Origin: Psammoneis japonica
Taxonomy: Eukaryota
Direction of reading: 5' to 3'
NCBI GenBank assembly: GCA_008632985.1
Contig: QPGO01000058.1
Location: forward strand, 310,001 to 374,000
Length of the DNA stretch: 64,000 nt
The notes under the pieces are model-generated. The model did no database searches and was not told where the DNA came from. It saw nothing but the letters and a program-made list of their open reading frames with translations. Shown here piece after piece: positions 15,388 through 38,274 of this stretch (position 1 is its first letter; every line of letters begins with the position of its first letter). Position numbers and translations under genes: made by a program.

Positions 15388-17813
15388 ATGCCTGTCTCTT
15401 TTAAGACCGAGCCGTCTATTCACAATCTCGAAGATGCCCCTGCCCCGAGCGAAGAACTGCTCGTCGCCATCAGTCCTCCTATTTCACCTCGACCCACCAG
15501 GGAACATTCTTCTCTACTCAGGACCTCCAGATCCTCACCATCACCTCCATTAACCGTAATAACTGATGGACCAGGCGAGTCAGTGGCCGACACTGACAAG
15601 CTCAAACTTGCTGACGATGAGATGATTGACGAAGAAGGGAGTGGTGGATGTGACGACGAAGAATATGATAGCCAGAGTGGCGACTTACCCGAACAAGCAC
15701 AAAGAGACGAGATACCTGACGATGATTCTTCGCAAAGAGCCTGGGTTCATTTTCCATTTACCTGCTTGGCTATTCCAGCTCGTTGCAGAAAAGAATGTAG
15801 CTGGAACCGCTTATCTGTCTCTGTTGTGCAATACGCGCCTTGCTTTTGGTGCATGGCCGAAGGGGACAAAACAGATCGAAACATTCTTTATCGATTGAAT
15901 ATTTTGTGCGCTTTCTTTGCAACAGGCCAGGTCGTAGCTGGCGCGCTTGTGCTCTTCTCACAGATCGCCGGTGGCTTTATCAACAAATCAGAAGCAACCG
16001 GACGAACCGAGCGGAACTATTTTGCTCCTACTTTGTGGAGTTTGGATGAGATAGTCCTATTCTGTGGATTTGTTGGCTTGATTACCCTCATCACTACGCT
16101 TTTGACTCTGCGAGTGATCAAAGAAGTGCGAGTGGTTGGCTCCATAAGATATATGTGGGCCTTACTTGCTATCATTCCTGCAGAATTATTCCTCATCATA
16201 TCTCTCATAGGTATTTTTGGATTATGTTTTGGATCGTTCTTGCAAATGTTGAGCTCACTGAATGTCTTTGGGTTTCGTTATTTCAGACATCTATAGGGTT
16301 ACTGACGTTTATGTAAAACAGTGGTGGTACGTGAATTCAATGGCTTGGTACCGGGATCGGCTGTGCGCGAAAGGTACCGGTGAAACACGTTGTGTGGTTC
16401 CTATCTGCGGTTTGCCTCTCTTTGGGCAAGCTGCTGGTGAGTGATGTGCATGTAGCATCTAATGGGGTATGCCGAGGCTCTTCTTTTTCTCAACGACGCG
16501 ACAATCATTTCGTTGTTCTTACAGCTACAAATCCGTATATGGGAACCGATTCAGAAGAGTGCATTGACGGGGAAAACTCGTGGTGTAGTTTCTATTATAA
16601 CGCCACCGATTGCCGGTCGATTCGCAATGACGCCCAGGCTGAAATGCGACGAACATCCTATATTTTCTTTGCGGTAAGTTTCGTCGTCCACCAGAGCGCA
16701 CCTTCGTGCCTTACGAATTGCTCCTACAGCTGCACGCCTTTCTTCCGGTGTAGGCAAATTTTGTGTGGGGTGTGATTCTAATTATTCTGGTACGTTGTTA
16801 CAATTGAATCCATAGTTGCACACAGAGCGTGGTTTCTGGGATCGCTCTCACGTTTCAGTTTTATCTTAAGCTGCTTCTCACTATTAACACGTTGGAGGCA
16901 ATAATTACAAAGCCCGTTGTGCAGAAAGCCAAAGAATCCAATGTTCCGTAAGTTTTTATTGTAATTAATTGTGTATGGGAAAGGTATACAATGGACATAT
17001 CGGCGTAGATTCTCAAAAGAGTATTCTGTTTGGTTTGTGACTTGCATAATCCAGAGGATGGATGACATTGCCTTTTGTGTTTTCTACGACGGCTGGCGCA
17101 ATCATGATGTTTTCGCCAAACTCTGTGCTCAACGTCAATTCGGGGTCAGATCCATCATGGATTGCATCTTGTTTCATGGGGCTAGGGGGGTTGTTCTTGG
17201 CGGCGGGGGCGTTGGGGTGGATTTTGTCAACGTTCACGATCACAAACAGCCTAGACAAGCGCACAAAGCAGCTTGTGGCGTGGCTCTTCATAATCACTTT
17301 GGCTTTCACTCTTCTAGCAATCGGTACGTTCACGTCGGAAGGGCGTCCTCCCGTCAAAAATGGTCTAGAATATCTTCTGATTCTTTCTTTGATTCTCTTT
17401 TCGCGCAGTGGTCGTGTTTTCATTATCAATTTTCTATTCCACTGAAGCTGTCGATGTTGGCATATCCGTCGAAGGCCGGGGAGACATTGCTTGTGGTATT
17501 GATACTGTTGATAGTTGCTCATTTTGTGGTAATACAAACTCCAGTATAGTCGAGTGTCCAGAGTGGGTAAGTTCCAAAAGTCCATCATTGCTAAACCTAC
17601 CGACGTACACGAGACCATCCCTGACATCGTTTGTTTCGAAATTGTGTTGGCTTTTGTGGCTAGACTACAAATGATGTCACGCGTGTTATCCAGACACAAT
17701 TGAAGCAAAGTGCCATTCTGGCGGCGATTCTGTCTATATTTGCCTTTGGAGCGTTCCGTTTTGGTCTCGTGCTGCGTCGACACATTGCCGAATACGAGAT
17801 TGACTATGTCTAG
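15388..17813 (+). CDS. Multi-exon multi-pass membrane protein of unknown function
   Basis: Acidic N-terminus and several hydrophobic segments across ORFs 15388..16296, 16262.., 16380.., 17062.. and 17408... GT..AG introns. The last exon ends ...RHIAEYEIDYV* (TAG 17811-17813). Exon borders are approximate. Confidence 0.6.
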
Positions 17814-17968
17814 AGTAGAGACTACGGAGAGGGACGCAAGAAAAGTAGAAAGAAAAAACGTTCAAGTACGCAAGACTTGATTCGCCCAGTAGTAAATGTT
17901 GGGTAGAAATTATTCATAAATAAGTGTGTAGAATCAGATTGTGGGCCGCTAACTTCCTCGGATACTAT

Positions 17969-18461
17969 TTATATCCACTCACCGCCAGTGCACCCAACTT
18001 TGTTTTCGTCCAAAATGCAACGAGCTTCGGAGAGGCAGTATCGTCCTGGCGAGCAACTTGAACAAGCCCAATCATCAGGATAGCAGAGAACTTGTTCATA
18101 ATCAATATAGAATTTCGGTTGGCGGTCCTCGTAAAACTCGGTCTGGGAATTGACTCGATTGAGGCAAAGGTATTCATCGTCGTCGCACTCTGGGAAACGA
18201 TCAAAGTCGCATTGTCCCAATGTGCCGTCGTCGTTCAAACAGACATCGCGATTCGGCCAGAAAAAATCTGCACCGAGATTAATTCTTTCCTACAGCACGA
18301 TACATTAGAATCGAGAAGAGATGTGAGCGTCGTTCTCTCGCGCGCAAGAGATTTGCGCCATCGACTAAAACGCACAGAGTTGAACTTACATCATCATCAG
18401 CGAACACGGAAAGAGGGAAAGAGGAGAGAAGAAAGGAAAAGATAAATAGGCGAGAGATCAT
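17969..18461 (-). CDS. Small secreted Cys-rich protein (2 exons)
   Basis: Exon 1 18461-18390 encodes a signal peptide. Intron 18389-18290 (GTAAG..TGTAG). Exon 2 is in frame with ORF 17969..18238 (CSSCSPGRYCLSEARCILD). Confidence 0.75.
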
Positions 18462-19035
18462 GGTTTAGAAATAAAGGGGGCAGAAAGAGTTCGATTGAAC
18501 TGAAGTGACCAATCGTGATGATGCAAAAGATTGTCGATGGACCAGCAAAATTTCGCTTTTTTGTGGCTGATGTGGAGCATTGGCTCTTGAGTACGGTAAG
18601 TTGTTTCGTGAGACGCAACGAAAAATATATATCCATTTTATAAATTAATTAAGGTTTTATATATTCAAACAATTTTGGCGCCAAATTCTCCATAAATCTT
18701 GGATACCTTTTTTCGAGGCCGCCACCAATCTAATGATGGAAAAGATACTTGAATACTTATTAACGTCCACCGTTAAATTGTTTCAGTCACTATCGGCTTT
18801 ACCAGCAATTAATGGAAATTAATTTATGAATATGGAGTATATAGAAACAGCCGAAATTTTGTCAATTGGGTCGTGCCCGCGACCACAAAAGACTCACACG
18901 CCGCAGATACCGTATGAAACGACTCAAGCCACTTTTTACCTTCGAACAAAAACCACATACTCACGTCACCATTATTGCCACAAAACGACTCCATTACACA
19001 AACTGCATCTCTCGACCCTCTTGGATTTGTTGAAG

Positions 19036-20719
19036 ATGACTGATAAAGCTGTTGCAAACGAGGAAGTACCTCTGGAGTCGTCACCTCCTGAGCGAGACGC
19101 CGCATCCGAGGTGCCGATGGACTCAACTGTCCAAGCCATCATGGTGCCGCTGGGGGATTCCAGCGATCAAGACAACTCTACAGTTACAGGAGCTCTTTCG
19201 GTCGATGAAGAAGGAATCGCCGCACCTGTGTCTTTGAGGTCGAAGAGGACCAGAAGGAAAGGCCGGAAGGACGGAGAAGAGCAAAGCACTACTCGCGCCA
19301 AGCGCAACGTGCTTTTGTTCCTGCTGGTACTCATGATTGCGATAACGGCCGCTTCCGTGGCAGCCTTCGTTGTCATTAGCAAGAACGGCGAATCTTCCGA
19401 TGCATCGAAGAGCCAACAGGGTGATGGTTCTGCCGAGACGACTCAGAAACCCGACGCCCCTGCACCCACGGCATCTCCCGTAGTACCCGTTACTGGACCT
19501 CCCACCCAGGCGCCCGTCACGTCTGCTCCTCAAAACCCCACTGCAAATCCCACCCAAGCCACCATGAGCCCCACCGTTGACCCTGCTAAGCAGGTTTTGG
19601 TGGATTTCTTTTCCAACGTGTCGGGAGCTACCGCCTTCTCGGATGCCACTTCTGCGCAGTCTCGTGCCGTTGATTGGCTTGTCAAGAACAGCGACATTGA
19701 GACCCTTCAACAGCCGGCCTTGATCGAGCAACGCTACGCATTGGTTGTAATGCAAATGGCCCTGGGTGGTGATTTTGCTCTCCCCGCGGGTGTGGATGAG
19801 TGCCGCTGGGCCGGTGTTACATGCGAGAACCAGAAGGTTGTGTCGATCAATTTTGCACGATCCAACCTGAATGGATTCATTCCCGACGAAATCAGCTTGC
19901 TGTCTGAGTTGGTAGCATTAGACCTGGGCGAGAACGCAATTGGTGGCGAGATCCCCGAGTCTCTCTACTCCCTCACCAAGTTGCAGAAAATCTACATGCA
20001 CCAAAACAAGCTGACTGGGGAGATTTCCGAATCGATTGGTAATCTTTTCAGCTTGACTCATTTGTATTTGGGAATGAACCAGCTCTCCGGACCCTTCCCA
20101 ACCTCGCTTGGTTCTGTAAATGGTCAAGGACATCCTTTGCGCTATCTTGTTTTGAACCACAACAATCTCACAGGCAGCCTTCCTTCCAACCTTCGCTGGC
20201 GTGCCATGTTCTATCTGGACTTGTCCCACAACAAGTTTTCCGGTCCTCTTCCTGAAGATTTTGGTGGGAGAATGACCGGTGCCCGGTTGATGTACTTGAA
20301 TAACAACGAATTTAGTGGAGATATTCCCATTGGACTGGCCACCATGGCCGGCGCACGGTTGGAAGTCCTGCACCTGAACGACAACGAGTTCACGGGCAAG
20401 CTCCACCAGCAAACATAAATACTCGTAAGTGTGCTTTTTTTCATTGATTCTATGCTCTGTCGAAATCAAATGATCACTCACTCACATTCTTGCTCTCTGT
20501 ATAATGTGTGTGTTTTGTTTGACAGTATCCATGACTTTTCAAAACAACAAGTTTGACGAACTCGGAAAGAATGTCTGCAAAATGCAAGTTTTGGCTGATG
20601 AAGGCGAAATGATTAATCTCAAGGCCGATTGCGCAATTTGTACTTGCAAGTACAGTTGTGAAGACTGTTCACCGAACCGACCGAACCTTGGTAGGAACAT
20701 TTTCAAGCGATTTCCTTAG
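19036..20719 (+). CDS. Single-pass membrane leucine-rich-repeat protein, paralog 1
   Basis: TM segment, Pro/Thr stalk, QSRAVDWL..QRYAL, ECRWAGVTC cap, LxLxxNxLxGxIP repeats. Intron 20425-20525. Probable 1-bp error near 20405. Confidence 0.88.
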
Positions 20720-21245
20720 ACGGTAGGGAACTTGTTCGATTTCTCTAGAGCTCCATGGCCCGTACTCTATTGTGGCGCCAGCTCGGTTATAAACTACTGT
20801 ATATATCGACTACGATCTCATTTTCTAGCGTCAACCTATCGTTTTCCTTCAGTCTATTTGTCCTACAATGTCCGTGTCCTCTTCGTCACACGCATGTGTT
20901 TTTTCTCCTTTTACATTGTTGCTGCACTCGCAAAGCAATTTGACTTCGACGAACCTCCCGCAAGGCCGATCGCGCAATTTGTACTTGCAAGTACAGTTGT
21001 GGAGACTGTTCACCGAACCTTGGTAGGAACACTGTCAATCGATTTCAGTAGACGTTAGAGCACTTCTTCGATTTCCCTAGCCAGATGGCCCGTACTCTAT
21101 TGTGGTGCCAGCTCGGTTATAAACGATTTATCGACAATCTTATTTGCTGTCGTCAGCGTGTCGTTTTCCATCCCGCCCATCCTTCAGTCTATTCTTCCTG
21201 CACTGCCCGTGTCCTCTTCGTCACCCAAACGTGTTTTTTCTCATT
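20620..21245 (+). repeat. Tandem duplication of the LRR gene 3' end/UTR (~20620-20910 and ~20960-21245)
   Basis: CAAGGCCGAT.GCGCAATTTGTACTTGCAAGTACAGTTGTG, ACCGAACCTTGGTAGGAACA and ATGGCCCGTACTCTATTGTGG.GCCAGCTCGGTTATAAAC each occur twice. Confidence 0.85.
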
Positions 21246-21299
21246 ATACATTCTCTGAGTTGCAATTCCATTTTGATGTTAAGTTTTCTCGCGGCAGGC

Positions 21300-24200
21300 A
21301 TCATTGGCATTTTCTGCTTAACTCTCATCTCATCACAGCGTTTGGTTTTCATGGTGCCACATCTTTCATTTTTGCCACTCTCTTGTTTTTCTGTCCCTGT
21401 GTCACAAGAAGTTGACCCAACATCAAGCCTTTGCACAGCTCTGGCTTTTGCCACTTCTGCCGCTCAGCCAACTCTCTCTCAACCTCACTTGCTCTGAGGG
21501 GTGCTGGCTGTGCGAGGCAGAGAGTGCTTGTCGTGCACAACACTGAGAAAGCCTCCTTCCTGCCCTTCAGCATGAGCACAAGATAGCCAGCTTTTGTGCC
21601 TTCCTCTTCTCTCTGGTGTTTGGCTGTCACACCGGCAGCAGTGTGCCCTGCACCAAAGACAGGAAAAGAAGAAAAAAGCTGTGCAGCACAGTGTGGCCAT
21701 GTGCTGACTGCACAGTGAGAGCAATTTTTTTCTCACTTTTGCAGCATCATGTTCTTTTTTGCAAGAAATGGCAGTGGCAACAGCAGCAGGAAGTGGCAAA
21801 TGTGCAAGCAGGGGGCAGCAAAAAGCAGCCACTTGGTGCTGTCATGACAGCTTGTGGCAGCCTGCTCAAAAAGAGTTGCAGTTTCTTTTTTTTTCAAAAA
21901 GAACTTTCAGTTTTCAGCCCAGTTGTGCCACAATTGCACTTTGTGCTGATGTGACATGTTTGCACATGCTGGATGTGACAAACTTTTGTTTTGAAGGGTT
22001 GCTTGGTGTGCAGGTGCCAAAGACACATGCAAGTGCAGACTTGTTGCAATGGCGGGTGGTGGCCAACTTGTCCACCATTTCCTCTGAGTTTGGGATCCAA
22101 CCCAGCAGATGCTCTGGCATGGCTGGCTCTCTGCCCACATGTGGTGTTGTGCTGTGCTGGTTGTGCATGTGTGAGAGAAAACAAAGAGATGGGAAAGTGA
22201 GGCTGAAGAGCTCAAGCCATTGTGTCCAATGCAACAAAGTTTTAAAAGGAAAAAATCAGAGGCACCGCACCAAAAACTGAGGATGGAACAGAGAAGCAAA
22301 AGAACCTTTTTTTTGTTTTGAATGAGCTCTCAGCCCAAACAAGCCAAGAACAGCCTAAGACAGAGGAGCTCTCACAAGAAAAAAAGCCACTTCAAAGGAG
22401 ACACAATGGATGTGGCTGGGAAACAGCCAATCCAATTGAGAGAGCAAATTGCTCACCAAAGCTGTGTGCGCAGTGCCATCTGAATGAAGCAGAGGCAACT
22501 TGGCTTGCTTGCGACATTGTGCATGATTGGGCAGGTGTCTGTGGGGTTCCACCCCTGCTGCCATTTTGCAGCATGCCACCCCCCTTGCATCACAGCAGTG
22601 TTTCATGCCTTCTCTGTGCTTGGATTCCTCAATGGCCACTGAGTCTTCATGGAGTGCATTGGCTTGTGCCCCCTGTTGTTTTGTGCCAGTTGCACACAAA
22701 TCTCTCCCCACAGCATGCTGAAGCTTGCTTCTTTTCTTGCACTTCACCTCTTGTGTCAACCCAATCCTAGCACATCAATCTGAGTTGGCTCTGGGCTCAC
22801 ATGCAGTGATCACCCACATGAAAACACACGCAACTGAAGCCTGTTTTGTCATGTCAAATTTTGCAACACCCATCATGCCCACCAGCAGTGGTGTCTGGGA
22901 TTCATTCATGTGATGACAACATGCCTGCACATGCAGCACCCGATCTCCTCTTGCCCCACAAGGAGAAAGAGCAATGTGTTTGCAGCTGGGGCATGAAGTG
23001 CCATGATGTCCAAGAGAGTTTTCATGCTTGAGCCAAAGCAGGCAAAGACAAAGCTTGTGCCAGTCAATGTGTGTGTCTGTGGCTTGGAGGCGACTTGGAA
23101 AAAGTGGAGAAATGGGGAGTGAAGTGGCACTGGTGAACACACCTGGGAATGTCTTGCAATGCCAATTGACAACTTGGTTCAGGCTCCTTTGGCAAGGCAT
23201 CATTGGAGTGTCAATCAACTGTGCTCTTTTGATGGTGGCAAGAACCCCTCTGCACCCTTGCTGTTGGCAAAGATGACAACTCTGATGGTGGTGGTTGACC
23301 ATCAATTCTTTATGATGAAGGGTTCTGACAAGCTGTGTTTTCACTGTCCCAATGTCCCAATGAACTCCTTGTTGATTGAGACAAAGACTTCACCATGCAG
23401 CAAGCACAACCAAACGTTTGATGAGCACAAAGCATTTGCCAAGCTAAAAGGGTGCCAAGACAGATTTGAAGGGCTGAGTTGATTGGCAGTGCTGGCACTC
23501 TTGACTTGTTTTGACAAAATCTTGCCAAACCTTGCACCAAACTCACCAAAGTTGACAAAGTTGCCAAAGCTGACAAAGTCACCAATCTCACTGAAGCTGA
23601 CAAAGTCACCAAACTTGTTGCCAAAGTGGACAAAGTTTCCAAAGTTTGGCAAAAAGTTGAGAAAGTCGACAAAGTCACTAAACTTGCCAAAGTCACCAAA
23701 ATTGATGAAATCACCACAGCTGACAAAGTTGCCAAAGTTGATGAAATCATCAAAGTTGGTGAACTCGCCAATCTTGCTAAAGCTGACAAAGTCACCAAAC
23801 TTGCCAAAGTGGACAAAGTCACCAAATCTCAGTGCTGACAAAGTTGCCAAAGTTGCCAAAAGTTGAAAAGTTGCCAAACTTGCCAAAGCTGACAAAGTCA
23901 CCACAATTGATGACATCACCACAGCTGACAAAGTTGCTAAACTCACCAAAGCTGACGAAGTCACCAAACTCACCAAAGTTGACAAAATTGAAAAAGCAGT
24001 CACCAAAGTGGACAAAATCGCCAAAGTCACCAAAGTTGACAAAGACACCAAAGTTGACAACAAAGTCACCAAACTTGACAAAGCTGACAAAGTTGAAAAA
24101 GTTGCCAAAGTTGACAAACTTGCCAGAATCGCCAATGGCAGTCACTGTCGTCAAAGGTGAGAGACACACAACATGCCAGCCAGAACCCTTGTGTTTGATC

Positions 24201-25177
24201 TGACTGTGGGTGACAGCATCTCAATTGTGTTTGAAATCAGAGGTTGCCACAGAGGAGCCGATGTGCCTGATGATGAAAAGATGAGACTGGATTTTCTTTC
24301 ACACCATGTCACTCACCCCAATCCAACCTCTGTTGACCCCACTCCTGGGCCCACCCCGACCTCCATCGAAACTCAAAGTTCTTGGCCCAGTGACAGACCA
24401 AGCAAGAGTGCAGCAAGATCACAGACATTGGAGAACAAACTGCTGTGTGTGGCAAATGACAATGAGTCTGGAGCTAGCCAGCACACATCACATCATCTCA
24501 ACTGCATTGCCGCCATGGATCGAGACTTGTTTTGGTCACTGTGAACAACGAATTGCACAGCGGACTGGAGGCCTCAAGTTCGTTGCTACATTGTTTCCTT
24601 CCTGGCAGATTTTTCCTCAAGCACCTTATGGTGTAGACCCAGGTCCGACACGGGAACGCGTTCGACCCACGTGAGCGTTCCTCCACGACCTTCTGCTGAT
24701 TCCTGGCGATGCGAGCCAAACCATTTGCATCGAAATGCGAAAGCAACAGCCCTTGTTGTCTTCAGCAAACTCGGTGCACCAATCCTGAACCTGTTCTCCA
24801 ATGCGGCTGCAGTGATCAAGCGGTTCCGCTTCCGAAATCCGCTCCCAAACTGGGGCACACGGACCAAAGACCGAAACCTGTCTGCAGAGACCAGTGCAGT
24901 CGCATCCTTTGCATCTGGGTTCGCGTCATTCATTGGAGTTCATTGTGTTGAAATGGAGACGCTTTTCCACAAGGCTGCCGCTCTCATCAATCACCAGAAC
25001 GAGGCAGCAGCACTGGCGATGCTTGCTGCGGTGACCGTGAGGACGAAACACGTTGGCAGTCATGATCGGATGGTTGACAGCAATGTGTTCTCGGTTCTTG
25101 CTTTTCCATGTTCGCAGCTGTCGTGTGACGGTCTTGGAGCCTCACGTTTTCAGGCGCCATCTGTCGAGAAACGTCAT
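21300..25177. mobile_element. Decayed repeat/TE block 2
   Basis: Strong TpA depletion and Tyr-free ORFs. CpG is depleted up to ~24500 but retained in 24636-25177. Confidence 0.75.
23505..24130 (+). repeat. ~9-bp-period degenerate tandem array (AAAGTTGAC/AAAGTCACC/AAAGTTGCC/AAAGCTGAC)
   Basis: Visible periodicity over ~630 bp. Translates as KVD/KVA/KVT or TKS/PKL repeats. Confidence 0.9.
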
Positions 25178-25693
25178 TATACACATGCAACATCATTCGC
25201 TCTACGGTCATCGTGAGGGCATCGATCGTATGGGCGGGCCCGCCTCACGACGTTTTCAGGGGCTCCGTTTCTGTCGAGAACTCTGAGAATTCTCGTCATG
25301 CATGTATCATCATGCATGTATCATCATGCATTACCATTTTAAAATATAAAAATGATAGAACTTCAGTGATGAATATAAATTTTATTTTCACAGCCGTTAC
25401 CGCGCGCATGCAATGGAATTTTGGCGCCAAGAGCTGGTCAAGAGTCAGAAAAATTCCAATGAAACGTGGCAGTGTGAGGTGTGAGCTCACAAGACTCGTT
25501 TGAAACTCAAAAAGAGGCCAACGGAATGTCCGAGTTTGACCACGAGATCAGCTTCCGATCGGCCCATTCTTTTTGGTTGTTACGAGAGTACGTACATTCG
25601 CATTGCTAAGTATCCCCACCTGACTCTCTTGCGTAATTGCATTTTCAAAACATGACACACAAATTTGCTGTAAGACTGGAAGAATATCAGGAG

Positions 25694-27278
25694 ATGTCCG
25701 CTCTTGAACGAGAAGACGCATCTGATGCTAATGAACAGATAGGCTCCAACAATTGTGAAGCCTTCATGGTGCCGCTGGGAGGCACCAGCGATCAAGGCTT
25801 TTCAAGTGGTGCAGTGTCTCTTTCAGTCGGCGGCGAAGAAGAAACCACCACACCTGTGTCTTCACGCTCGAGGAGGACCAGGAGAAACAACTCCAAGGAT
25901 GGGTCAACCAGGACTGCTGCATCGAAACGCCGTGTTTTCTCGCTCGCACCTATGATTGCTTTATTGCCGCTGTTGCAGCTGGCGTCCTTGTGATTGGCAA
26001 GAGCGGTGCATGTTCCAAACTATTCAGCAGTCCACTAGATGCTGGTCCCAAGACGCTTCAGGAACGCGACTCCTCAGGAGAAAGGACCACCCTGAGGTCC
26101 GATAGGCCTGCCCACTGAACCAAAAAGACGATCCCGCCCAAGCCACCAGGAGACTCAACGGCGTCAGGGAGACTTTGGTGAATCACTTTGCCACAATTTC
26201 TGGGCCTGACGCCTTTGCCACTCTCACGTTGGGGCCTGGTCTCACGTTGGGGCCGTCGCCGCAGGATCGCGCTGTTAACTGGCTTGTCCAGAACGACGAC
26301 AGTGCCACCCTTCAACAGCCGGAATTGATTGAGCAGCGTTACGCCTTGCTTGTCATGCAAATGTCTCTTAACGCTAACTTTTCTGTCCCCATGGTGAATG
26401 AGTGCGAGTGGGCTGGCGTAACGTGCGATGAAGGAAACATTGCTGCTGTGTCGGTCAACTTTGCGCGATCCAACCTAAACGGTGTCATTCCCGACGAAAT
26501 CAGAGTGCTGACCGAATTGGAAACGTTGGATCTAGGCGAGAACGAGATTCGTGGTGAGATTCCCGATCTCTCTACACCCTTACCAACTTGCGGAAGATCT
26601 TTCTGCATCAAAACAGGCTCACTGGAGGTATTTCAGAATCGATCAGTAATATTTTCAACTTGACGCACTTGTATTTGGGAATGAACCAGCTATCGGGACC
26701 CATCCCCCGCTCGCTAGCGTTCGAATCTGGTGAAGGACGTCCATTGCGTTACGTTGTCTTGAACCACAACCAACTCACTGGCGATGTTCCTTCCGACCTT
26801 CGTTGGGCTTCGGTGTTCTACATTGACTTGTCTCACAACAGATTATCCGGTCCCCTTCCCGAAGACTTTGGCGACAGGCTTGGCAAAGTCCGGGTGATGT
26901 ACTTGAATAACAACGAATTCAGTGGAGATATTCCCGAAAAGCTCGCCGAAAAGACCGAAACTTCGATGCAAGTTGTGCACTTGAACGACAACAACTTTAC
27001 CGGGACAACCCCATCCGCCAACGATGCGACTGGTAAGTGTGCTTTCTTTCATTGATTCTATGCGTTGTCGAATCAAACTGTCACTCACATTCTTGCTCTC
27101 TGTACAATGTGCGTTTTGTTTGACAGTCTCCATGACTTTTCAAAACAACAACTTTGACGAACTCGGAAAGGATGTTTGTAAGATGAATGTTTTTGAAGAT
27201 GGCGAAATGGTTAATCTCAAGGCCGATTGCTCAATTTGTGATTGCGATTACAATTGTGGAAACTGTATATCAGGTTAG
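25694..27278 (+). CDS. LRR membrane protein, paralog 2 (several frameshifts; pseudogene or assembly errors)
   Basis: Homologous to 19036-20719 (MVPLG, PVSSRSRRTRR, QDRAVNWL..QRYAL, ECEWAGVTC, LRRs). Same intron at ~27032-27125. Frame breaks near 25950-26170 and 26570. Confidence 0.8.
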
Positions 27279-27511
27279 CCGTAAATCTGCAGATTGCTTC
27301 TTGCTGTACGACAATATTTTTAGTTTGATTTCATAAGACTTAGAGCACTGCTTCGATTTCTCTAGCTATATGGCACGTACTTGAATATGGTGTCAGTTCG
27401 ACTATAAACGATTTATCGATCACCATGTTATTGCTAGCGTCAGTGTATTAGTATTCTTTCTCTAACACGTTACTTCTCAGAGGACAGTATTTCTTTGGAA
27501 CTGGGCTCTTG

Positions 27512-28167
27512 CTATGAATGAACCCCGTCTTGTCGTGACATGAGCGATATTCCCACTTCCTCGTCTCCTTCTTCTCCTTCGTGGTCCGATTCATAAATAG
27601 TTTCGTTCTCGCCCGGTGGCCACCGCCCTTCTCGCATGAGAGACGCCAAGAGCGTTTGTTTTCCAATGGCCGTGACGACCACAATCCCCGAACCCTGCAC
27701 AACGTGGCTCCCGTAAAAGATTTGCGTCGGTTTCGTCGTTCCGTCGATGAAAGGGATGTGGACCTTGGCTTTGTCTCTCCGGTAATGTGCCTTACATCAA
27801 TCAGCATGTCATGGTCTACAGCCAAACAGACGCAGTCGGCCGGAACGATATCGCCTTCTTCTAGCCTCACAATGTCACCCGTCACTACTCCGGCGGCATC
27901 GTATCGTACCCACTGTCCGTCGCGTTTAATCTCGGCATCCTCAGGTTGAATCTGTTTAAATAGCTTCATACTAGGAATGTGCTTGATGCACGGCAACAAG
28001 CAACACACCCATGCAGGGCATTTAATGGGTGGATCCACAACATTGTAAGATTCGTCGTTTATTGCCTCCATTCGTCGTTTCGATGCTTCATCGTTCGACA
28101 AGCCATTCTCAAAGTCCGTCTCTAGTTGACTTAAGAGGTCCTGTTGTGCTTTGGAGAGCGTTGTCAT
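27512..28167 (-). CDS. Stand-alone P-type ATPase N-terminal plus actuator-domain protein
   Basis: GLSNDEASKRR, VVTGDIVRLEEGDIVPADC, ITGET. After a frameshift near 27730 it continues FYGSHVVQGSGIVVVTAIG to the stop at 27512. No DKTGT-containing P domain in the corrected frame. Confidence 0.75.
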
Positions 28168-29556
28168 GTTGAAAACAACGGCGCTGAAACTAAGGTCATT
28201 GCGAATTGCAAATCTGTTGCGCATGTGCAAGGTGCAAGATCGCAACCGATGCGACGTGGGCGGGTGCGCGGTAGCGTTTTCCCGCCATTTTTTTTATTTC
28301 ATTTGAGAGTGATTTCCGGGCTTCTTCACTCTGCTCATCCACGACCAAAACTGGAGCCTGTTTCATCTACGCAGGATCAGCACGATGAGGGAATCTTGGC
28401 AGTGGAAATGTGCTGGGTGCGCACATCGCATCAGATCTTCTCATTGTTCCTGATCATTCATCACGGCCACGCACACCACTTTCGAATCACCGTTGCTGCT
28501 GTCGGGCGTCTCGTTTTCGAGCCCATTGCACCCACGGTGCTGGCCTGGGCAGGCCATGTCTCTTTGATGCTGCCCTCAACACACCATGGATGATGTTTGC
28601 AGTCATTCCAGCCACATCCATGGCATCCATTGACAAGAACGGAAGCCCTGCGACAGAGAAGCGCTTTCGCTTCATGATTTTTGGGGCAAGCTGCACGTTT
28701 TCTTCCTTTTCCCCTGGTTTCAGCAAACAGCTCCAACTCTTCACAGACAATTTTCCACGGGCGTGGGTCTTGTTTGCAGCAGATGCAAAGAAAGGGAACA
28801 TCTTCCCCTTCACACTTGTGCTTTGCCTTCTTGAACGGTGGGAGACAGGAGAGTTGGGCGTCGGAGGGCATGGTGGCACTTTTGGAGCAGATGCTTGACA
28901 TTTTGCAAGGAGGAGGGTTTTGGCTCTCTCTGTGACAATTTTGTTTCTCCTTGTTGTGTTTGTTGTTTGTGACATTGTTTTTGATGTGTGCAAATTTGTC
29001 TTCGATCGTTGTGGACAATTGCACGCAAATCGAGCACCACATGCGATGGGTCCATCAGCAATTTGTTGTTCTGCACAGATGGAGACACAACAACAGCAAC
29101 ACAACAGACAAAACGAGAACTTTCATCATGCAATGGGAAGTCAAGTGCCGCAATGGTGAAAACAACATTTGTGGAGTTCTTGCTGAGACTGCTCTGCACT
29201 GCGGCAATCATCTTTTTGAACGCGGGCTGGCACTCAGTTTTTGAACATGACAAGCAAGCACAATGACCTTGTCACATTGAGCAATCCTCCAGCTCAATTG
29301 TCAATGACTGCCACACCCATTGCAGAGGAGGGTGTGTGATGAAAAATGTCATCTGCCCGCAACCATCTCCAGAATGGAGCCAGTGCAAGCCAAGGATGAG
29401 CAGCACTGTTGCCAGCAATGACAAAGTCTTTTTGGTTTTGTTGATCAAAATGATGATCAGGACGATGCAACGAGTCTGGACAGGGCTGCACAATGGAGTC
29501 TGAGTGGGACAATGCAACGGATCACTGCACGACGAGATCAAGCCAAGAGTGATGAG

Positions 29557-29949
29557 GATGTGTTCCAGACACAGGCGGGCAAATCCATGTGACATTGAGC
29601 CCGTGGAATTCTGCGTGCGAGCTCCGCAGCAAAATTGTCAGGCAATGCATGTGTCAATGATGCCAACAGAAAATGAGGCAATTTTGTGAATGCACAAACT
29701 GTCCATGATTGAAGCACATCATTTTTATTCAGCCAGGTGCATTCTTCAGACATTGCAGAATGCACCTGGTGCATTGTTGTGTTCCTGCAATTTTGTCAAA
29801 TGAAAATCTGCGGTTTTGCAAAACAGCGAGTCTGGAACATTTTTTGGAAGATCACATGCAGAAATGCACACTCGAAACATGTGACGGATGACAAAAATGA
29901 CTGTGTCACACGTCAGCACTGCAAGCTCCCGCCTGGGGCTGGGTGCATC
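29557..29949 (-). mobile_element. MITE family A, diverged inverted copy
   Basis: GATG...CATC ends, flanks TGAG/TGAC. The interior is reverse-complementary to copies 1 and 2 (GTGACATTGAGCCCGTGGAATTCTG, CCAACAGAAAATGAGGCAATTTT). Confidence 0.7.
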
Positions 29950-30232
29950 TGACAGTGCCAGCTGCATCCCACACCTTCCAAGTTTGAAGAGACACCTCAA
30001 TGAGATTGCTGCTTGCAAGAAATGCATTGAAAAAAAGCGTTGATGCTCCCATTCTCCTGCAGTTTGTTCACATCTTGAAGAGCAACAACTTCAATCAAGC
30101 GATGCATCAACCAATGTTGCAGAGCAGTGCAAAGGTTCAAGGAAGAAAAATGTGCCAAGCTGGAGCAGGTTCAGAAATCAGTGGCACAGATTGTGACATG
30201 GTGGAATGATTGGCTGTTGCAGCAACTGAAGG

Positions 30233-30487
30233 CCTGTTCCAGCCCCAGGTGATGAGAAATCCATCACGTGAGAGGCTGATTTTTTGTGCAGTTTAGCACA
30301 ATGAACTCCTTCAATTTTGGCATCTTTTCAAAAATCAAAAGGCAAGTGTGCACCCAAAATCACATGCAAAGTGCACACTTGCCCTTCGATTTGGCAAAAA
30401 AAGGATTTTGAAAAAGTTCAATGTGCCAAATGCAAAAATGGGAAATGATGGGTGTCAACCCTGTGCGCATCACCTGGAGCCAACAGG
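30233..30487. mobile_element. Small TIR element with internal hairpin
   Basis: Ends CCTGTTCCAGCCCCAGGTGATG / CATCACCTGGAGCCAACAGG. Internal perfect 13-bp inverted repeat GGCAAGTGTGCAC..GTGCACACTTGCC (30341-30383). Confidence 0.55.
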
Positions 30488-30835
30488 AGTCATTTGAAGA
30501 TGTTGCATGAGTCACAATTGATGTTTTGCACAAGGAAAAACAAAAAATCTGAGCTGAAATGCTGTCTGACCTACGGCATTTTTGCCTTCACCATGTGAGT
30601 CAAACTGCCGTCAATCCAGATGGCATTTCAATTGATCACCCAAGAAGTTGACATTCACACACGGATGGATGGATGGAAAGACTGACAACAATCATTTTTG
30701 GTGCTCTCCTGCAAAATTTCTGCGTGATGACTCTCAGGACCTGACTCACCTTCAATGCAGTGCCAGCGATTTTGATGGTCTTGCTCCACACCAACCAAAC
30801 CAAAATGATGCCTGAGCCTGCCATGAAACATTGCA

Positions 30836-31230
30836 GATGTGCTCCAGCTCTGGGTGGGACCTCACACTGCTGAACCATGACATCAACAGTTTTTTAGATT
30901 GCGTCGCATGTTGCGCACGTGCATTTCTGCATGTGACATTCTGTAAAATTGTTTCATGCTCCCTGTTTTGCGAAGCCAAAGGCTTTCTATTTTCAACATT
31001 TGTGAGAATGAAAATGTGCTGGGTGCATTCTTTAATGTCTGCAGATGCACCCAGGCAAACTGTCAATGATGTGCTCCAAGTGTGAAGGAGGAGATGCATT
31101 CGTAAAATTGCCTCTTTTCCTGTTGGCAATCATTTGCATTTTCATTGCCAACAAATTTGCTACGAAGCTCGCACACAGAATTCCACGGGCCAAATGTCAC
31201 ACGGAGTCCCACCCAGGGCTGGAACCCATC
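30836..31230 (+). mobile_element. MITE family A, copy 2
   Basis: Same TIRs as 1161-1559, flanked by TGCA/TGCA. Confidence 0.85.
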
Positions 31231-31287
31231 TGCAGCAAGAAAAGGATGGCAAAAGAAGCAAGATGGAAAGTTTAAAATGGTGCGCTG

Positions 31288-31675
31288 GACGTGCTCCAGC
31301 TCTGGGCAGGACCTTGCACTGCTGAACTGTGACATCGACAGTTTTTTGGATCACACTGCATGTCGCGCACGCAGAAAGGTGCGAGACTTTTGTGAAATTT
31401 TGTGTCATTTTGTGGCACACTTGTTGAGTGATCGTCCAACAACTTTTGACATTTTTTGTTGTGGCACGACTCTGTCATGTCTTAAAAATTGCATGGGGCA
31501 GGCGCACTTGCAAAAACGTCAAGTGGCAAGAGGCACAATTGTGCCACAAACTTGGCTGTTCATTTGATGTTGAAGACAAATGTGTCCGTCAATTAATTCT
31601 CGCACTGCGGGACTCACATGCAGAATTCTGCAGGCTCAATGTCACAAGGAGTCCCACCCAGGACTGGAACCCGCC
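31288..31675 (+). mobile_element. MITE family A-related copy (same ends, different interior)
   Basis: GACGTGCTCCAGCTCTGGGCAGGAC...GTCCCACCCAGGACTGGAACCCGCC, flanks GCTG/GTTG. Confidence 0.75.
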
Positions 31676-31954
31676 GTTGCTGCAAGCTGCCACCTGGTCG
31701 CCATGCGCCAATCCATGGGTGGTGGAGCAGAGGCTGCAAGTGCCTTTCTTGGTTTCTTGAATCTTCCAGGTGGGAACTCCTTTCGTTCTGAGGCTCGGTC
31801 TGCAGGTGAGCCACACCGAGTTGGATCACGGGATTGGATCTTGTCAGACTTCCGTCAGCCACAGGTGGAACCAGGTCAGATTGCAGATCAGATTTGACAT
31901 CTTGATGCATCGCAAAGCAACATTGGTTTTGAGATTCCAAATTCCCAAATGACA

Positions 31955-32520
31955 ACAAACGCTGACAAGCAGACAACAAGAAGTGTTGCCAAGATGCTTC
32001 ACATCTTGTCATGACATGATGATGTGACAAAAGAACCATGCTGTCATTGCTGCTTTGCACTTTGCATGTGTGGCCACATCATTGAACATCGTTGTCACTC
32101 AGTGTTTGCAACAATGCTGAGGAAGAAAAAGCCATCACTCTTCTGCAATTGAAAGAAACCAAAGAAATGTTTTCGTGTTGAAATTTCGAATTGCACAATG
32201 AGTGCTTGTCACTTTCCTCATTCAATGTTTCTCCAACAAATGACCCATGTTCCATGTGGCATCATTGGTTTGTCAAGCCACTCCATTGCCGTGCGACCTT
32301 TCTCATCTTCGTTTCGAGCACTGGAAGACTTTGACTGCAATGCCAAGGATGTTCCTTGCCCTCATTGCTGAATCTCATGCCGTTCTTCTGTGTCACAATT
32401 GTGTGATGTTGTGCCATTGTCATGATGACAGCACGGAATCTTCCAAATTTGATCCGACATCCAATCCGGATTTTCAGATTGGTGTTTGCTCTGAAGATGG
32501 TCCAATCCGAGATGTCGGAC
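31955..32520 (+). repeat. ~560-bp repeat (inverted copy at ~38275-38830)
   Basis: GACAACAAGAAGTGTTGCCAAGATGCTTCACATCTTGTCA and CCAAGGATGTTCCTTGCCC occur as reverse complements at ~38770-38810 and ~38445-38465. Confidence 0.8.
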
Positions 32521-33339
32521 AAACGCTTTCAGTTTTTCAAAATCAAGCAAGTGGGGGACGCGGCACTCAAACAGCATGGAATTCTGTGTGTCATGCTTCG
32601 CCAAGTTGCAAATCAAAATCACAATGGCGAAGCAGGTTGAAACTGGCAAGCAGTGGAGAATGTTCAAATGACAATTGGAGGGAAAGCAACGTTGTCGAGC
32701 TTGTCCTGGACACATGTTTTCTCATGCAAATGGAACTTTCATTCAGAATTTTCCCAAGTTCACCATGGTGAAGCGTGGGAAATCACTCGCCAAATTGCCA
32801 CACAAATCCCAGCAATTGTCCAGCGATGCTTCACAGAGCTGCAGCCAATGAACAACTTCTGTTCCGATGTCAAACTGGCACAACTTGTTGTCAGACATGT
32901 CAAAGCACAACTGTCATTTGGCAGAGTGTTCTTCCCAATGTCAAATGTGGTCAGAAGCAGTCGTGGCTTTCCACCGTGCTTTCATCGTGCTGTCAATTTT
33001 ATAACACGGTGAAGTGCGCACGTAAATTCGTGCCAGGTTCTACAGCAGTCCCCCATTTGATCGACTGAAAGCGTTCATCGGTCCCACAAAGGCCGCGGAT
33101 CGACTTTTTGACTCGATGGACTAACATTTTAATGGGTTATGAAGACCGAGCCAATCGTGCTCAAAGTAGCAGGACGACGGCCGGACGGATTCGCACATTG
33201 TCCGATGACGTCAAGATAACGTCATGGAAAACCGACAAAACAGCTGACATTTTTATTGCCTTCAGACATTTAAAAATATTTGCCACACCTTATTCCCGCT
33301 CCCGTCACAACTTTTTTACAGTTAGTCTAGGCCGACACC

Positions 33340-34218
33340 ATGGGCCACAAGTATTTAGTATATGCCACCGTTTCAGGTTTCATGGCATTATGGTATTGTT
33401 CATTGCAATTATTGCAAAGGCATCTAATTGTTGGTCCTTCGTTGCGGCAACAACAACAAGTCGATGCACCGATAGTCACGGGATCCAATTGGAAGACTTC
33501 AGCCCGTGCTTGTCAAACGCCATCACTGCAAGGGTTGTTTAAATCTCAGCAGAGTGAGGATAGGGGTCTGCTACACTGGTTTTACAATCTTTGTGGTGGA
33601 ACCTATGTAGAAATGGGTGGTCTTGACGGAGTTAAGTTCAGCAACACCCACGTCTTTAACAAGGGGTTGGGCTGGAAGGGCGTGCTCGTGGAGCTGGTCC
33701 CAGGGAACTATGAAAAGATGAAAATGAATCGACCCAATGAACTGGCGACGGTGAATGCGGCTGTTTGTGACAAGCGACAGACGCTTCACTACGTCAACCG
33801 AGAGGGTGCCGTCAGCGGGATTTGGGAGTTTATGGCACCCTCCTTTCGTAAGAAGTGGCACAATGGCCTTTCCCTCAACGACACGGTGCCCGTGGAATGC
33901 AAACCCCTCAATGACCTTTTCATGGAGACGGTCGGGGAGAGCTTTTATTTCGACTTCTTCTCGCTCGACATTGAAGGGGGCGAGTACGAGGCGCTGGCCA
34001 CGTTGGATTTTTCGAAATATGGGTTTGGCATTCTTGTCGTCGAATCAAGCAAGCACAATAATCGCAAGAATTTGGCACTAAGAATGCTTTTAGAAAGCAA
34101 GGGCTACAAATTTTTGAAAGATGAGCACCATAGCTATTGGTTTGTCAATGATGATTTTGGTTTGATCTACAAGGATTTGTTACACGACACGGAGGCCGGC
34201 GAAGAAAGTGTATCGTAA
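33340..34218 (+). CDS. FkbM-family (Methyltransf_21) methyltransferase with N-terminal anchor
   Basis: SQQSED, GTYVEMGGLDG..SNT, LGWKGVLVE, DFFSLDIEGGE motifs. Intact single ORF. Confidence 0.88.
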   Translation: MGHKYLVYATVSGFMALWYCSLQLLQRHLIVGPSLRQQQQVDAPIVTGSNWKTSARACQTPSLQGLFKSQQSEDRGLLHWFYNLCGGTYVEMGGLDGVKFSNTHVFNKGLGWKGVLVELVPGNYEKMKMNRPNELATVNAAVCDKRQTLHYVNREGAVSGIWEFMAPSFRKKWHNGLSLNDTVPVECKPLNDLFMETVGESFYFDFFSLDIEGGEYEALATLDFSKYGFGILVVESSKHNNRKNLALRMLLESKGYKFLKDEHHSYWFVNDDFGLIYKDLLHDTEAGEESVS

Positions 34219-35884
34219 GTGTATTTCAAGTTCACTTCTCCCCACGACACGGAATAAAAAAAGTCGGCTTACAAAATCTGATGTGGTCAAAGTTTCAATT
34301 GGAAAGAAAAGAATTAGCGTACATGGTCGATGCGCAACAGAATGTAGTCACTTGACAGAAAACTTCACAAATCTCGGTCAAGATATATGAATAGATCCTG
34401 TTGCATAATTAAATCTCCTTACTTGCTTAATTTTGCATGGAGTAGAGTTGAGAGTCCATCCCAGTCACAACTCAACATGGCGACGTAGTTCCTTGTTTAA
34501 TTGCTCCTTGCCTGTTCTATCGTTTTTTATACTACTACATATTCCTTCCCCCCCTGGTTTCCAGGTTGCTTTTTTTCCAAGTCTTGGGTTCTAGTTTGGC
34601 ATCGATCCATTTTGCCGTTTCCTCTTTGCTGGCCGTCCGCAAAGCCAGCGTGGTTTCCGAGTGAACACCTCAAAGGCACGCTCGTCATTGTGGTCTCTAC
34701 ATGGAACAATGGAACATTTCGACAATAGCACGGAAACAGTGGGAGTCACTTCTCGCGGAACTTGCCCCTTGGTGGTAGCCTGTTCGGGCCAATCTAAAAT
34801 GTCCAAAACGGGTTGGGGTTCCAGCTGCTGAAAGACTTGTTCCGGGTACGTCAAGTTGGTGAGTCTGTGTGGGGCGTGGAAAAGGTGTAAATGGGAATCA
34901 TCCACAGTCATGATGGCCAGTGCGGTTTGCCATTCCGTCTTGTTGCTGTTGCTGCACTGTTCGACCAACTTTATGGAAAACATCAATTGACTCTCCAAAG
35001 GTGACTGCAAAAGGCACAATTCTGCTGAACAGATTTGTGGTTCAATCAGTGTTTGTCTTGATCAATTCAAAATGGACAATTTGTGTTGAGCTTCTTGCCA
35101 TTGGACCATCTTGGAATGCTTTTCAATCGTGTCATGAATGTCTTCTTCTGCTTCCTGTCCATTTGGCATTCCACCAATTCTTGCAACACAGGAGAATGGA
35201 CTGACAAAAAGTCTGAAAGCAAATTCACTTGCTGGGCATGTGGTCCAAGAGCAAGCTGTGCAGTTTGAGTTGGCATTCCAGTTTGTTTGCCACGGCCGAA
35301 TCGGCCAATTGCAGCAATTCAGCTGTGATTTTGTCCACAAATTGGATTGAAGCTGAACGGCAATGTGGCACTGCATGTCGGCCAACCACAAGTCATGGCA
35401 GTTGGCATCCGACATGGGGCTCTTGGTGGACAGTTTGGAAAAGGGTGAAAAGGCAGAGCCAACTGGAGACCAGCAAAATGCTTGGGGCAAAAGAGTTGCC
35501 AAATGCAGGGGAAAAACATTGCTCATTTGAAGATGGGATGCCACACAGCAGCCTCATGGTTGGAAGCGGCTGTGGTGGTGGGTCACTGGTGTTCATGTCA
35601 ACAGCAACAATGCCTCAATGCATTTGAAGGGTTTGCCTGACTTTCATTGCAACCTCACAGACAATGCCAGCATTGCTCTTGACAGGATTTGAACAAGATT
35701 TTAGTTTGTCACACACAATTGTGTGTGGCTCTCACTCTGCACATGATGCGTGATGTCAGTCCTTCGGCTCCTGCAATGGTCTCTGCATGGAGACTCATCT
35801 GCCATTTTGACAGCAGCAAGGAGTTGTTGTTTTCTTCCACCCAGTCATCTTCAATTTCTGTCACTCCCCATTTTGCTTGAGGAG

Positions 35885-37240
35885 TCCACAGCAATGGATC
35901 CAGAGCCCACATCGTCAAAGCCGTTGAAGACCATGACTGGGAAATCAAAGACAACCCAGAACTGGTCAAGTTCATTTGCCATGTCAACAACAATGAATGC
36001 AAGGAAATCCTTGCCTGCAACAAAATCATGCACCACATCAAGCAAGAAGATGAGGATTCTACCCTCTGGAAGTTCTGACACATCGTCTCACATGAAGGAC
36101 CACATCTGAACCCCTTGCTGTCATTGCCAAGGACAATCCTGTCACCTGTGCCATTTGCGCACGCGAACATGGTTTGCTTGAGACTGATGGCTGAAATGCT
36201 TCCCAGACCACAGCTCTGAGCCAGAAGAAGCCATTCCTCATGGCCAACCAAGCCAAATTGCGCTCCTTTTGCACTGCCCATGATGCAAGTGCAAGCATGA
36301 AGTGCCCTGGACTGCAAGCATGCCTTGGCCCTCAATGAGTGCAATGGCAACCGCAAGTGGAAGATGCAATGGACCTTGAGATGACTCAGCTTGGTGAGTG
36401 CAAGGTCTTCCACGACTGCGGACATTGCAGGGACTCCAGTGCTCCATCAGGACACAAGAAGATCAGGGTGCATCTCATCTGCAATGTCAAACATGATGGA
36501 TGGCACAAAGCACAACTTGTTTGCTGATGGCACCTCACCAACGCACCCATTGACAGTGTCTGTTCTGGAGTGGTGTCTCTCCAGGCCTGCAAATGATGAT
36601 CTTCCTGGCAGAAATCAATGGCCTGGAGACTTGGGCGACTGACATTGGGAATGCCCATCTCAAAGCTGCGACCAAGGAGAAACTGCACATTGCAGCAGGC
36701 CCCAAATTTTTGGCAAGCAGGAAGGACACATCCTTGTCATCCACAAGGCCTTGTGCAGACTCGCAGCTCTGGCCTCAGTTGACATGAACGCTTTGCCGAT
36801 TGTTTGCATGCCAAAGGTTTCTTCTTCCTGTGCTGCACCGAACCTGACATCTGGCATGCAGGAATGGTGATCACTGCAAATGTGTTTGCCATTAAAAGAA
36901 CCCCAGGCTTTTGCAGACACTCTCATGGAGAAATGCAAGTTCAAGCTCAAGGGCACCAGACCATTGGAGCTCCATCTTGGTTGCAACTTCACCCGTGATC
37001 CGGGCAGCACCCTGTGTTGCATGCACATTGAGCACATGGTTGACAGCTGTGTGTGCCTCTTTGGGGAGAAGCCTGGCACTGATGTGCTTTCCCCTCTTGA
37101 CAAGGGGACCACCTGAGCTCGACACCTCCAATTGAGGCGCTGTGGCCAGAACATTGCAGGCACACTGCACTGGAAAACCATGCCAAGCTCCTGTGGGTCC
37201 CTCAGCATCAGACAACACCCAGAATCTTCATCCCTGCATC
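35885..37240 (+). mobile_element. Ty1/Copia (CoDi-like) pol remnant: linker plus reverse transcriptase
   Basis: LWKF*HIVSHEGP, GHKKIRVHLICNVKHDGWHKAQLV, DSVCSGVVSL, WATDIGNAHLKAATKEKLHIAAGPKF, KCKFKLKGTRPLELHLGCNF and SPLDKG match diatom Copia pol motifs, with stops and frameshifts. Confidence 0.9.
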
Positions 37241-38274
37241 ACCCTCCTCTGTCATCTCTTCATCAAAAAGAAGAGTCTCATCATGATTCTGCACAGAGTC
37301 TTCATGAGCATCAACTTGTTCCCCAGGCACAGGGTGGGTGTTGCCAATTCCTTTGTTGTGTGACAAAAATCAAGAGGTGGTGCATCAGGGATGTCCATTG
37401 CTGGAGATGCAGCACCTGCTGCAAGGGCAAAGGCTGGCTGACTGGGATGCTGCTTGCCATCCAAATTGTTGGTGGAGGGTTGACAGGCCAACTTGAACCC
37501 AGAACTGGGGTTGCCAGGTTCTTTGGAGCACCATCCAATGTCCTGTCAGAGGATGCAACAATGTCATGATGCCTCATGAAATGCTCAATGTCCTGGGTGA
37601 CATGCTTCTGCTTGGATTTCACCAACGGAACATTGGCTGTGAAGTGCTTGTGCCAGCATGCGCATTCTTGAACAGAGTCCTCAGCAGTGGATCACTGCCT
37701 TCGGGAGCTTGTGGCACCTCATCCATGTTTTGCAGGCTGTCAATGAGGCAGTCTTTGTGATGCCAGAATACATTGGTGAGGAGAGACTCAACAGGAATCA
37801 ACTGTGCAAGTGCCTCCTGCACAACACTGGGCATGCAGTGGGCACAGCAAGTCCCTGATTCTTGATGCAGAATTGGCCTGCTCCTGGTTCTTTGTTGATG
37901 GCCGAGTGCAATGCATGCACACAGCACAGGGCAGGAAGAGATCATTCACAAAGAAGAACCTTTGTTCAAAGTGGCAGGTTGCACAGAGATGGGCTGCATC
38001 ATGTCAACAAGCCATGGCTCTCTCTTCCTCAACATTGAGTCTGCAACCAGCAGGGGGTTGTCAAACAAGTTCACAGGAGTGTGAGCACCTCTGACAAACA
38101 GATCAACAAGAATGCTTTCGTGAGAATGGAACAAAATTGTTGGCAAGAGGTGACATTGGATCACATCACCAGGTGAACCAAGCCGGATCAGATTGCCAGA
38201 TTGACTCCTTCACAACCCATTAAAATGTCAGTTCATCAAGTCAAAAAGTCAATCCGTGGCCTTGTGGGACTGAT

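Follow-up and report, generated by a model that had tools for sequence, protein, structure and literature searches.

The window, by which we mean the whole 64,000-nucleotide stretch of DNA analysed here, contains 42.9 kb of compositionally normal DNA with observed/expected ratios (o/e) of 0.53 for TpA and 1.01 for CpG and 14.7 TG plus CA per 100 bp, together with seven blocks in which TpA o/e is 0.00–0.06, TG and CA o/e are 1.6–1.95, and CpG o/e ranges from 0.03 (in a per-kb table) to 0.54. The open reading frames of the normal parts include a formin with a WASH-CCDC53 repeat region, a sulfatase, Thoc5, LRR proteins, an alpha/beta hydrolase, and a DUF6824 protein, the last of a kind typical of diatoms. 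A frame of 1403 codons on the minus strand (47443–51654) contains eight WASH-complex CCDC53 stretches and, after them, the first part of an FH2 formin domain, whose remainder is in the next frame (46222–47265), and its internal repeats are also seen in self-BLAST. The features of concern here are these:

1–3244, 21300–25178, 28368–33000, 34972–39607, 42547–45279, 54420–55397 and 59489–60443, no strand: seven blocks of TpA depletion
21300–24519, no strand: old hypermutated block 2, stripped of both TpA and CpG
24520–24634, no strand: junction zone, where CpG density is back (changepoint 24511) and three TpA are left
24635–25177, no strand: TA-free, CpG-retaining patch, single copy and with no recognisable gene
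25178–25400, no strand: sharp right-hand boundary, with a TA changepoint at 25178
25655–27440, plus strand: second LRR gene (copy 2), paralogous to that at 19040–20800 (copy 1)
27448–28293, minus strand: N-terminal part of a P-type ATPase, an ORF of 281 aa with Cation_ATPase_N and the start of E1-E2
28369–33000, no strand: block 3, with TpA almost gone and CpG o/e of ~0.3–0.54
28369–28900, no strand: left-hand margin of block 3, the second stretch, TA-free and with CpG partly kept
54420–54787, no strand: third TA-poor, CpG-keeping margin, ~370 bp

Block 2 is flanked by the two LRR paralogues, which are 64–90% identical. Their intron (20425–20525) is 90% identical and their exons 64–81%, the reverse of the usual relationship, which points to either gene conversion at this locus or an intron with a function of its own. 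At the left edge of the block lie two tandem copies of the 3' end of LRR copy 1 (20620–20917 and 20961–21252, 78% identity). Across 21300–24630 the o/e values are 0.06 for TpA, 0.15 for CpG, 1.95 for TG and 1.66 for CA, and within the block there is a degenerate 9-bp minisatellite (23547–24125; consensus CAAAGTTGA, ~63 copies) with many length variants among the contigs of the second assembly described below (X1). To the right, the P-type ATPase ORF has normal TpA and CpG, adjoins the 3' end of the LRR gene, and is covered by a transcript-type contig of depth 50 from a further run, such that it may be an expressed gene fragment. The contigs of that run (X2, 'DNA?') skip the GT..AG intron at 20425–20525 and thus behave as transcripts; none of them lies on 21207–25413, a blank that is not counted as evidence.

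The original prediction described ~540 bp without TpA and with about 40 CpG beside block 2, and exact counts bear this out: the 543 bp at 24635–25177 contain 0 TpA and 40 CpG, with a CpG o/e of 0.99–1.0. The TA-free run, bounded by TAs at 24634 and 25178, is 544 bp long with a GC content of 0.54 (0.478 in normal DNA), and the dinucleotide table for 24636–25177 gives TA 0, CG 40, TG 46 and CA 48. From the base composition of the patch and the normal o/e of 0.53 one expects 14.7 TpA, and from the normal density 19.4. TG and CA together number 94 against 79.7 expected, and the surplus of ~14 matches the number of TpA missing. The CpG o/e of 0.99 compares with 1.01 in normal DNA and 0.15 in old block 2, and TpC is not depleted (TC o/e 1.22, and 1.13–1.23 in normal DNA).

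The patch lies outside all of the controls with which these counts were compared. Among 785 normal windows of 542 bp the lowest TpA count is 6, a minimum that holds also for the 62 of them with GC of at least 0.52. The longest TA-free run within the 42.9 kb of normal DNA is 289 bp, and the longest in 200 first-order Markov simulations of 64 kb is 365 bp; from an exponential tail, the expectation for a TA-free run of at least 544 bp over the 1528 normal gaps is 4e-6. TpA-free runs of this length are therefore not common in the ordinary DNA of the window, as they should be if the patch were merely an example of CpG-rich genic sequence. The window has 25 TA-free runs of at least 300 bp, and the patch alone among them has a CpG o/e above 0.54.

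A search for an unmutated homologue of the patch, from which its earlier state might be read, found none by self-BLAST of the window, by two degenerate-pattern scans of metagenome contigs (0 matches each), or by a transition-tolerant Smith-Waterman comparison of 24520–25300 with the rest of the window (best score 40.5, with shuffles scoring up to 38). That the patch once had TpA is thus something we infer from its composition only, as no ancestral or unmutated homologue turned up. The LRR paralogues do not supply one, since their homology begins only at the coding region (~19040 and 25655) and the patch has no paralogous upstream counterpart. At the ends of the patch there are no direct or inverted repeats defining an element, and by eye no clear target-site duplication.

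An absence of TpA could also be native, the patch being TA-free, CpG-rich DNA in which nothing has mutated, for example a promoter resembling a CpG island, an exon, or GC-rich DNA of foreign origin. An uninterrupted frame of 223 codons does run through the patch (24545–25216, plus strand), the first transcript-type contig of the LRR gene starts ~370 bp downstream, and the three-base periodicity of 2.6 is ambiguous, falling inside the ranges of both coding (1.7–9.2) and non-coding (0.9–3.5) sequence. We nonetheless regard this explanation as very improbable, given that every normal 542-bp window has at least 6 TpA and that the gain of TG plus CA roughly equals the loss of TpA. The open frame has little weight, because in DNA lacking TA only TGA can stop a frame and long open frames are expected. 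Its sole HMMER match among 1.84 billion representatives (E=3.5e-4) is an artefact, a 560-aa tandem-repeat protein matched in 10 stretches.

Searches for recognisable content gave the same picture. Pfam scans of 145 stop-to-stop frames of at least 80 aa, out of 147 overlapping the blocks (the two omitted from that run had been scanned separately), assigned 0 families to the patch frames, and no family met the cut-off in any block ORF, with two sub-threshold chance matches outside the patch. Rfam scans of 21000–33500 gave nothing in the patch and three sub-threshold miRNA-like matches at 30278–30445. As far as tested the patch is apparently non-coding. A foreign origin, viral or transposon, was considered and set aside, as there is no Pfam family, no real protein homologue, and a single copy.

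The two edges of the patch differ in character. On the right, TpA resumes abruptly at 25178, with 4 TpA in the 50-bp bins covering 25178–25277; a 14-bp tandem repeat (25296–25331) and an AT-rich tract then precede the LRR paralogue. LRR copy 2 is 480 bp from the patch edge and is unaffected: the TA o/e values are 0.46 and 0.45 for copies 2 and 1 respectively, and differences of TA to TG/CA between the copies number 12 and 17 in the two directions, so that neither is mutated at TpA and the hypermutated region is sharply bounded. On the left, CpG returns at ~24511, giving an offset of 667 bp from the TpA changepoint at 25178, and three TpA survive between the old block and the patch (24587, 24627 and 24634), where the probability of at least 3 TpA in 48 bp at block TpA density is 5e-4. 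The patch thus lies beside block 2, as originally described, but is not strictly contiguous with it; it forms a separate unit of 543 bp and does not continue the block without a break. The segment 24587–24634 may be a protected footprint, or a seam between two separate mutation events.

A second version of the locus is provided by X1, the independently assembled contigs of a public DNA run aligned to 17000–35000, which could represent another strain, another allele or the same sample. One X1 contig (3202 bp, depth 59.7) bridges 24095–27291 and is alone over the patch, from which it follows that the junctions are real and that the patch is single-copy at a likeness of at least 90%. Its version of 24635–25177 likewise has 0 TpA. 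Between the contig and the window there are 13 differing letters, 9 of them in 24549–24942, and all nine of these are transitions. Seven are CpG in one version and TpG or CpA in the other, the CG being in the window in 4 cases and in X1 in 3 (the differences are unpolarised), and three of the seven are in the junction zone (24549, 24562 and 24581). The other two are the adjacent letters 24694 and 24695, which form one TG-versus-CA double difference. CpG-transition differences per CpG site between X1 and the window are:

Patch plus junction, 24520–25178: 7/47
Covered parts of old block 2: 4/20
Normal DNA, 6.7 kb: 3/401

Block 3, which is high-copy and has at least 153 X1 differences, did not enter this count. 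The rate of CpG mutation in the patch is therefore about twenty times that in the neighbouring genes (Fisher, p=8.6e-6) and the same as that in the old block (p=0.72), although when the most polymorphic intergenic stretch alone (18200–18990, 1/47) is taken for comparison the excess has p=0.059. The 7/47 also argue against purifying selection, and so against the view that the patch is functional sequence in its native state. Since CpG in the patch mutates at the block rate and yet its content is normal, the exposure has apparently been short and the CpG sites are not protected. TpA conversion after the two versions split would leave about half of the 15–19 expected sites differing; only one double is seen, which indicates that TpA erasure was essentially complete before the split. 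These data agree with the prediction that the patch was recently targeted and that its TpA loss is saturated.

The asymmetry between the two losses extends across the window. When 255 windows of 500 bp are classified, TpA kept (o/e of at least 0.35) with CpG lost (o/e below 0.35) occurs in none of them, TpA lost (o/e below 0.15) with CpG middling or high in 23, and both lost in 55, such that TpA loss is uncoupled from CpG loss, as predicted, and in one direction only. A similar CpG-retaining stretch had been reported at 28375–28900. It is TA-free, with 0 TpA, but its CpG is only partly kept (22 CpG, o/e 0.60); with ~40% of CpG gone it is an intermediate case. The margin at 54420 has 12 CG and a CpG o/e of 0.81 in the run 54420–54669.

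The prediction had also allowed that TpA conversion might spread more widely than CpG loss, and changepoints at 11 reliable edges (two short-block edges, with unreliable fits, are left out) locate the limits of the CpG-poor and TA-free zones, the former falling short of the latter by 60, -27, 667, 167, 38, 74, 225, -16, 138, 366 and 53 bp. The median is near 70 bp and most edges fall within ~0–225 bp; TpA loss weakly tends to reach slightly further than CpG loss, and a gap of several hundred bases between the two boundaries is present only at the patch and at 54420.

We interpret the patch as a recently silenced margin in which a fast TpA hypermutation is done and a slower CpG decay has only begun, an account that we consider reasonably probable. 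In this scheme a silent, hypermutated domain would recently have drawn in the patch, a single-copy and apparently non-coding sequence, at its margin. A fast, site-specific A:T>G:C process would convert TpA to TpG or CpA on both strands, and all of the ~15–19 TpA of the patch would have been erased before the two genome versions diverged. A slower decay of CpG to TpG or CpA, most likely by deamination of 5-methylcytosine, would be at an early stage in the patch, with each CpG site there already mutating as readily as one in the adjacent old block. Within this scheme it is the sequence of events and the part played by methylation that are conditional. The three TpA at 24587–24634, between the patch and the old block, count against it, as they are not predicted by simple contiguous spreading.

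The relative speed of the two processes can be bounded. With at most 3 expected TpA surviving unseen and at least 73–95% of CpG remaining, the ratio of TpA conversion to CpG decay is at least 5, and the computed bounds run from at least 5.0 to at least 36. TpA conversion would thus be at least ~5 times faster per site, and more likely 10–30 or up to 36 times. The loss of TA with CG kept suggests that the TA-erasing process is much faster than CG decay, and the prediction of a separate and faster process is upheld by X1 and the rate ratio as regards speed, its separateness being our inference. If TpA conversion is so much faster, CpG o/e within TA-free DNA (0.03–1.0 here) becomes a rough scale of age.

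A different way to keep CpG is through low exposure, with the patch marking reach rather than age. It would then be the fluctuating fringe of a silent domain, where a fast TpA mutator records brief or rare excursions of the domain and CpG methylation is weaker or intermittent. The CpG-poor zone does end short of the TA-free zone at most block edges, and all seven CpG differences are left of 24943 (7/31 sites, and 0/17 to the right; p=0.04 for this post-hoc split), so that the right third of the patch may be less exposed rather than merely young; this split keeps the fringe explanation alive. Most edge offsets are small, however, and the left two thirds of the patch has the per-CpG difference rate of the old block, so its exposure is not weak. 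Moreover, the three surviving TpA at 24587–24634 are on the block side, where exposure should peak. We consider low exposure unlikely to be the main explanation, and rank it second to a faster process acting on a young margin.

It is also conceivable that a single domain-bound mutator acts on both dinucleotides at two rates, CpG being the poorer substrate and 5-methylcytosine having no role. TG/CA is the product of both changes, which at most blocks also stop at common sharp domain edges, and reports that ADAT2 enzymes can edit A as well as C in DNA are among the works cited in the available portions of a preprint on Bigelowiella natans (B. natans; Mettrop et al., 10.64898/2026.01.13.699255). 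In the B. natans data themselves 230 of 231 single-nucleotide mutations in the hypermutable regions are A>G or T>C at TpA and a CpG component is not reported, and CpG methylation of diatom transposons is described in the literature (PMC9998398, in the portion available to us). A single mutator accordingly seems improbable to us.

The preprint describes the closest known system to the process that we propose. The B. natans mutations were found in mutation-accumulation lines within two hypermutable integrated viral regions, the larger of which was confirmed as single-copy; they affect integrated giant-virus and virophage DNA at rates of ~6e-7 per site per generation, and the authors propose an ADAT2-like adenine deaminase (10.64898/2026.01.13.699255). 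The two cases would share A:T>G:C change confined to TpA on both strands, and they have in common confinement to a region, single-copy DNA, and a depletion of TpA with a gain of CpA and TpG. They differ in that the rate was measured there in lines and only a footprint is seen here, in that TpA is 1.8-fold depleted in the B. natans NCLDV region and zero in the patch, and in that we are dealing here with a diatom-like stramenopile and with a patch that cannot be recognised as viral or transposon DNA. 'CpG' has 0 occurrences in the preprint and diatoms are not discussed (10.64898/2026.01.13.699255), and the relation to CpG decay is what the patch locus adds. As to chemistry, we give about even chances to deamination of adenine in T-A context by an ADAT/TadA-like enzyme. 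ADAR, ADAT2/3 and TadA, which are discussed in the same preprint (10.64898/2026.01.13.699255), convert A to G with T (U) on the 5' side, as would be the case here, but are mostly RNA enzymes.

Two other systems of silent DNA share part of this pattern. RIP of fungi turns CpA into TpA, thereby enriching TpA, and needs duplicated sequence. It resembles the patch in being a domain-bound transition hypermutation of silent DNA, and goes together with cytosine methylation. It is described for fungi in the available text of the RIPCAL paper (PMC2621366), and Neurospora is among the fungi that have it. As an explanation it was rejected because its direction is opposite, TpA being zero in the patch and at o/e 0.03–0.06 in the blocks, and because duplication is absent, with one X1 contig at a likeness of at least 90% and no copy elsewhere in the window. 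The CpG component resembles decay driven by 5-methylcytosine, in which CG gives TG or CA by transition: the old blocks have CpG o/e of 0.03–0.3 and 7/47 sites differ in the patch, although the CpG o/e of the patch itself is still 1.0 and not reduced. Methylated transposons are known from diatoms (PMC9998398, in the portion available).

The same order of events could be produced by a different chemistry, a modification of thymine at T-A steps, such as 5-hydroxymethyluracil (5hmU) made by an enzyme of TET/JBP type. 5hmU mispairs with G, and TpA reads the same on both strands, in keeping with the equal gains of TG and CA (46 and 48). Dinoflagellates, in which such a mark is found, are alveolates, and we know of nothing on 5hmU in diatoms. 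According to the available portions of the sources, 5hmU made by a TET/JBP homologue marks and silences dinoflagellate transposons (PMC11572971), and early work gave a preference for TA and TC contexts in Crypthecodinium (PMC11071213). The likeness is thus to a thymine-centred mark of silent repeats in a SAR-group alga, with old reports of TA and TC contexts (PMC11572971, PMC11071213, PMC9998398, in the portions available). The dinoflagellate mark is a modification and not a mutation, and the available text of PMC11572971 and PMC11071213 reports no TpA depletion; the portion of PMC11071213 at hand also describes a base-resolution map in Breviolum with no 5hmU sequence motif. TpC, moreover, is not lost in the patch (TC o/e 1.22, within the 1.13–1.23 of normal DNA). 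On balance a thymine modification appears a fairly unlikely source of the TpA loss.

TpA-directed hypermutation has been described so far only for the chlorarachniophyte B. natans, in the 2026 preprint, and a literature search for TpA loss in diatoms or for a relation between TpA loss and CpG methylation decay found no description of either. What the patch adds is a stretch that is single-copy and unrecognisable as mobile DNA, is TpA-free in a second assembly also, and already has CpG transitions in excess. As single-copy, non-transposon DNA that is mutated at TpA, it indicates that the process follows the domain rather than repeats. It is in effect a natural point in a time series, with TpA erasure complete, CpG content full, and the CpG sites mutating at the pace of old silent DNA, and as such it places the two processes in sequence and sets a limit on the ratio of their speeds. 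A bolder generalisation, possible but doubtful, is that TpA erasure is the first, burst-like step whenever DNA of this diatom, single-copy and non-repeat sequence included, enters silent chromatin, more than 10 times faster per site than CpG decay and with no need of duplication or foreign origin. Read together, TpA and CpG content would in that case act as a clock with two speeds, by which the spread of silent domains could be dated, and the chemistry could be a so-far unknown T-A-directed system of DNA modification or editing, common to distant algae.

Several further observations concern the blocks and their surroundings. Block 3 has TA-free runs of 1358 and 1406 bp, and its middle is very high-copy in X1 (29020–32024, summed depth 4,000–61,360); the loose ends of other copies carry TA and CG, so that less-mutated members of the family are probably present elsewhere in the genome. 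Two repeat pairs inside blocks differ by 55 transitions and 6 transversions and by 68 and 15, with 15 and 18 TG/CA doubles respectively. Transitions and doubles between copies point to mutation in place after the copies had formed, with the reservation that the doubles could also come from former CpG. The longest TA-free runs outside the blocks in CpG-normal DNA are 55920–56206 (286 bp), which is 500 bp away from block 6 and may represent a further short mutated patch, and 12468–12757 (289 bp), which falls within the GC-rich sulfatase gene. The residual TpA of the blocks (n=59) are found in CTAA/TTAG in 32% of cases (8% in normal DNA) and in TTAA in 20% (5% in normal DNA), with 0 in ATAT and GTAC contexts; they are either contexts avoided by the mutator or newly made TpA. 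Some of them, for example those at 1219 and 30895, are common to repeat copies.
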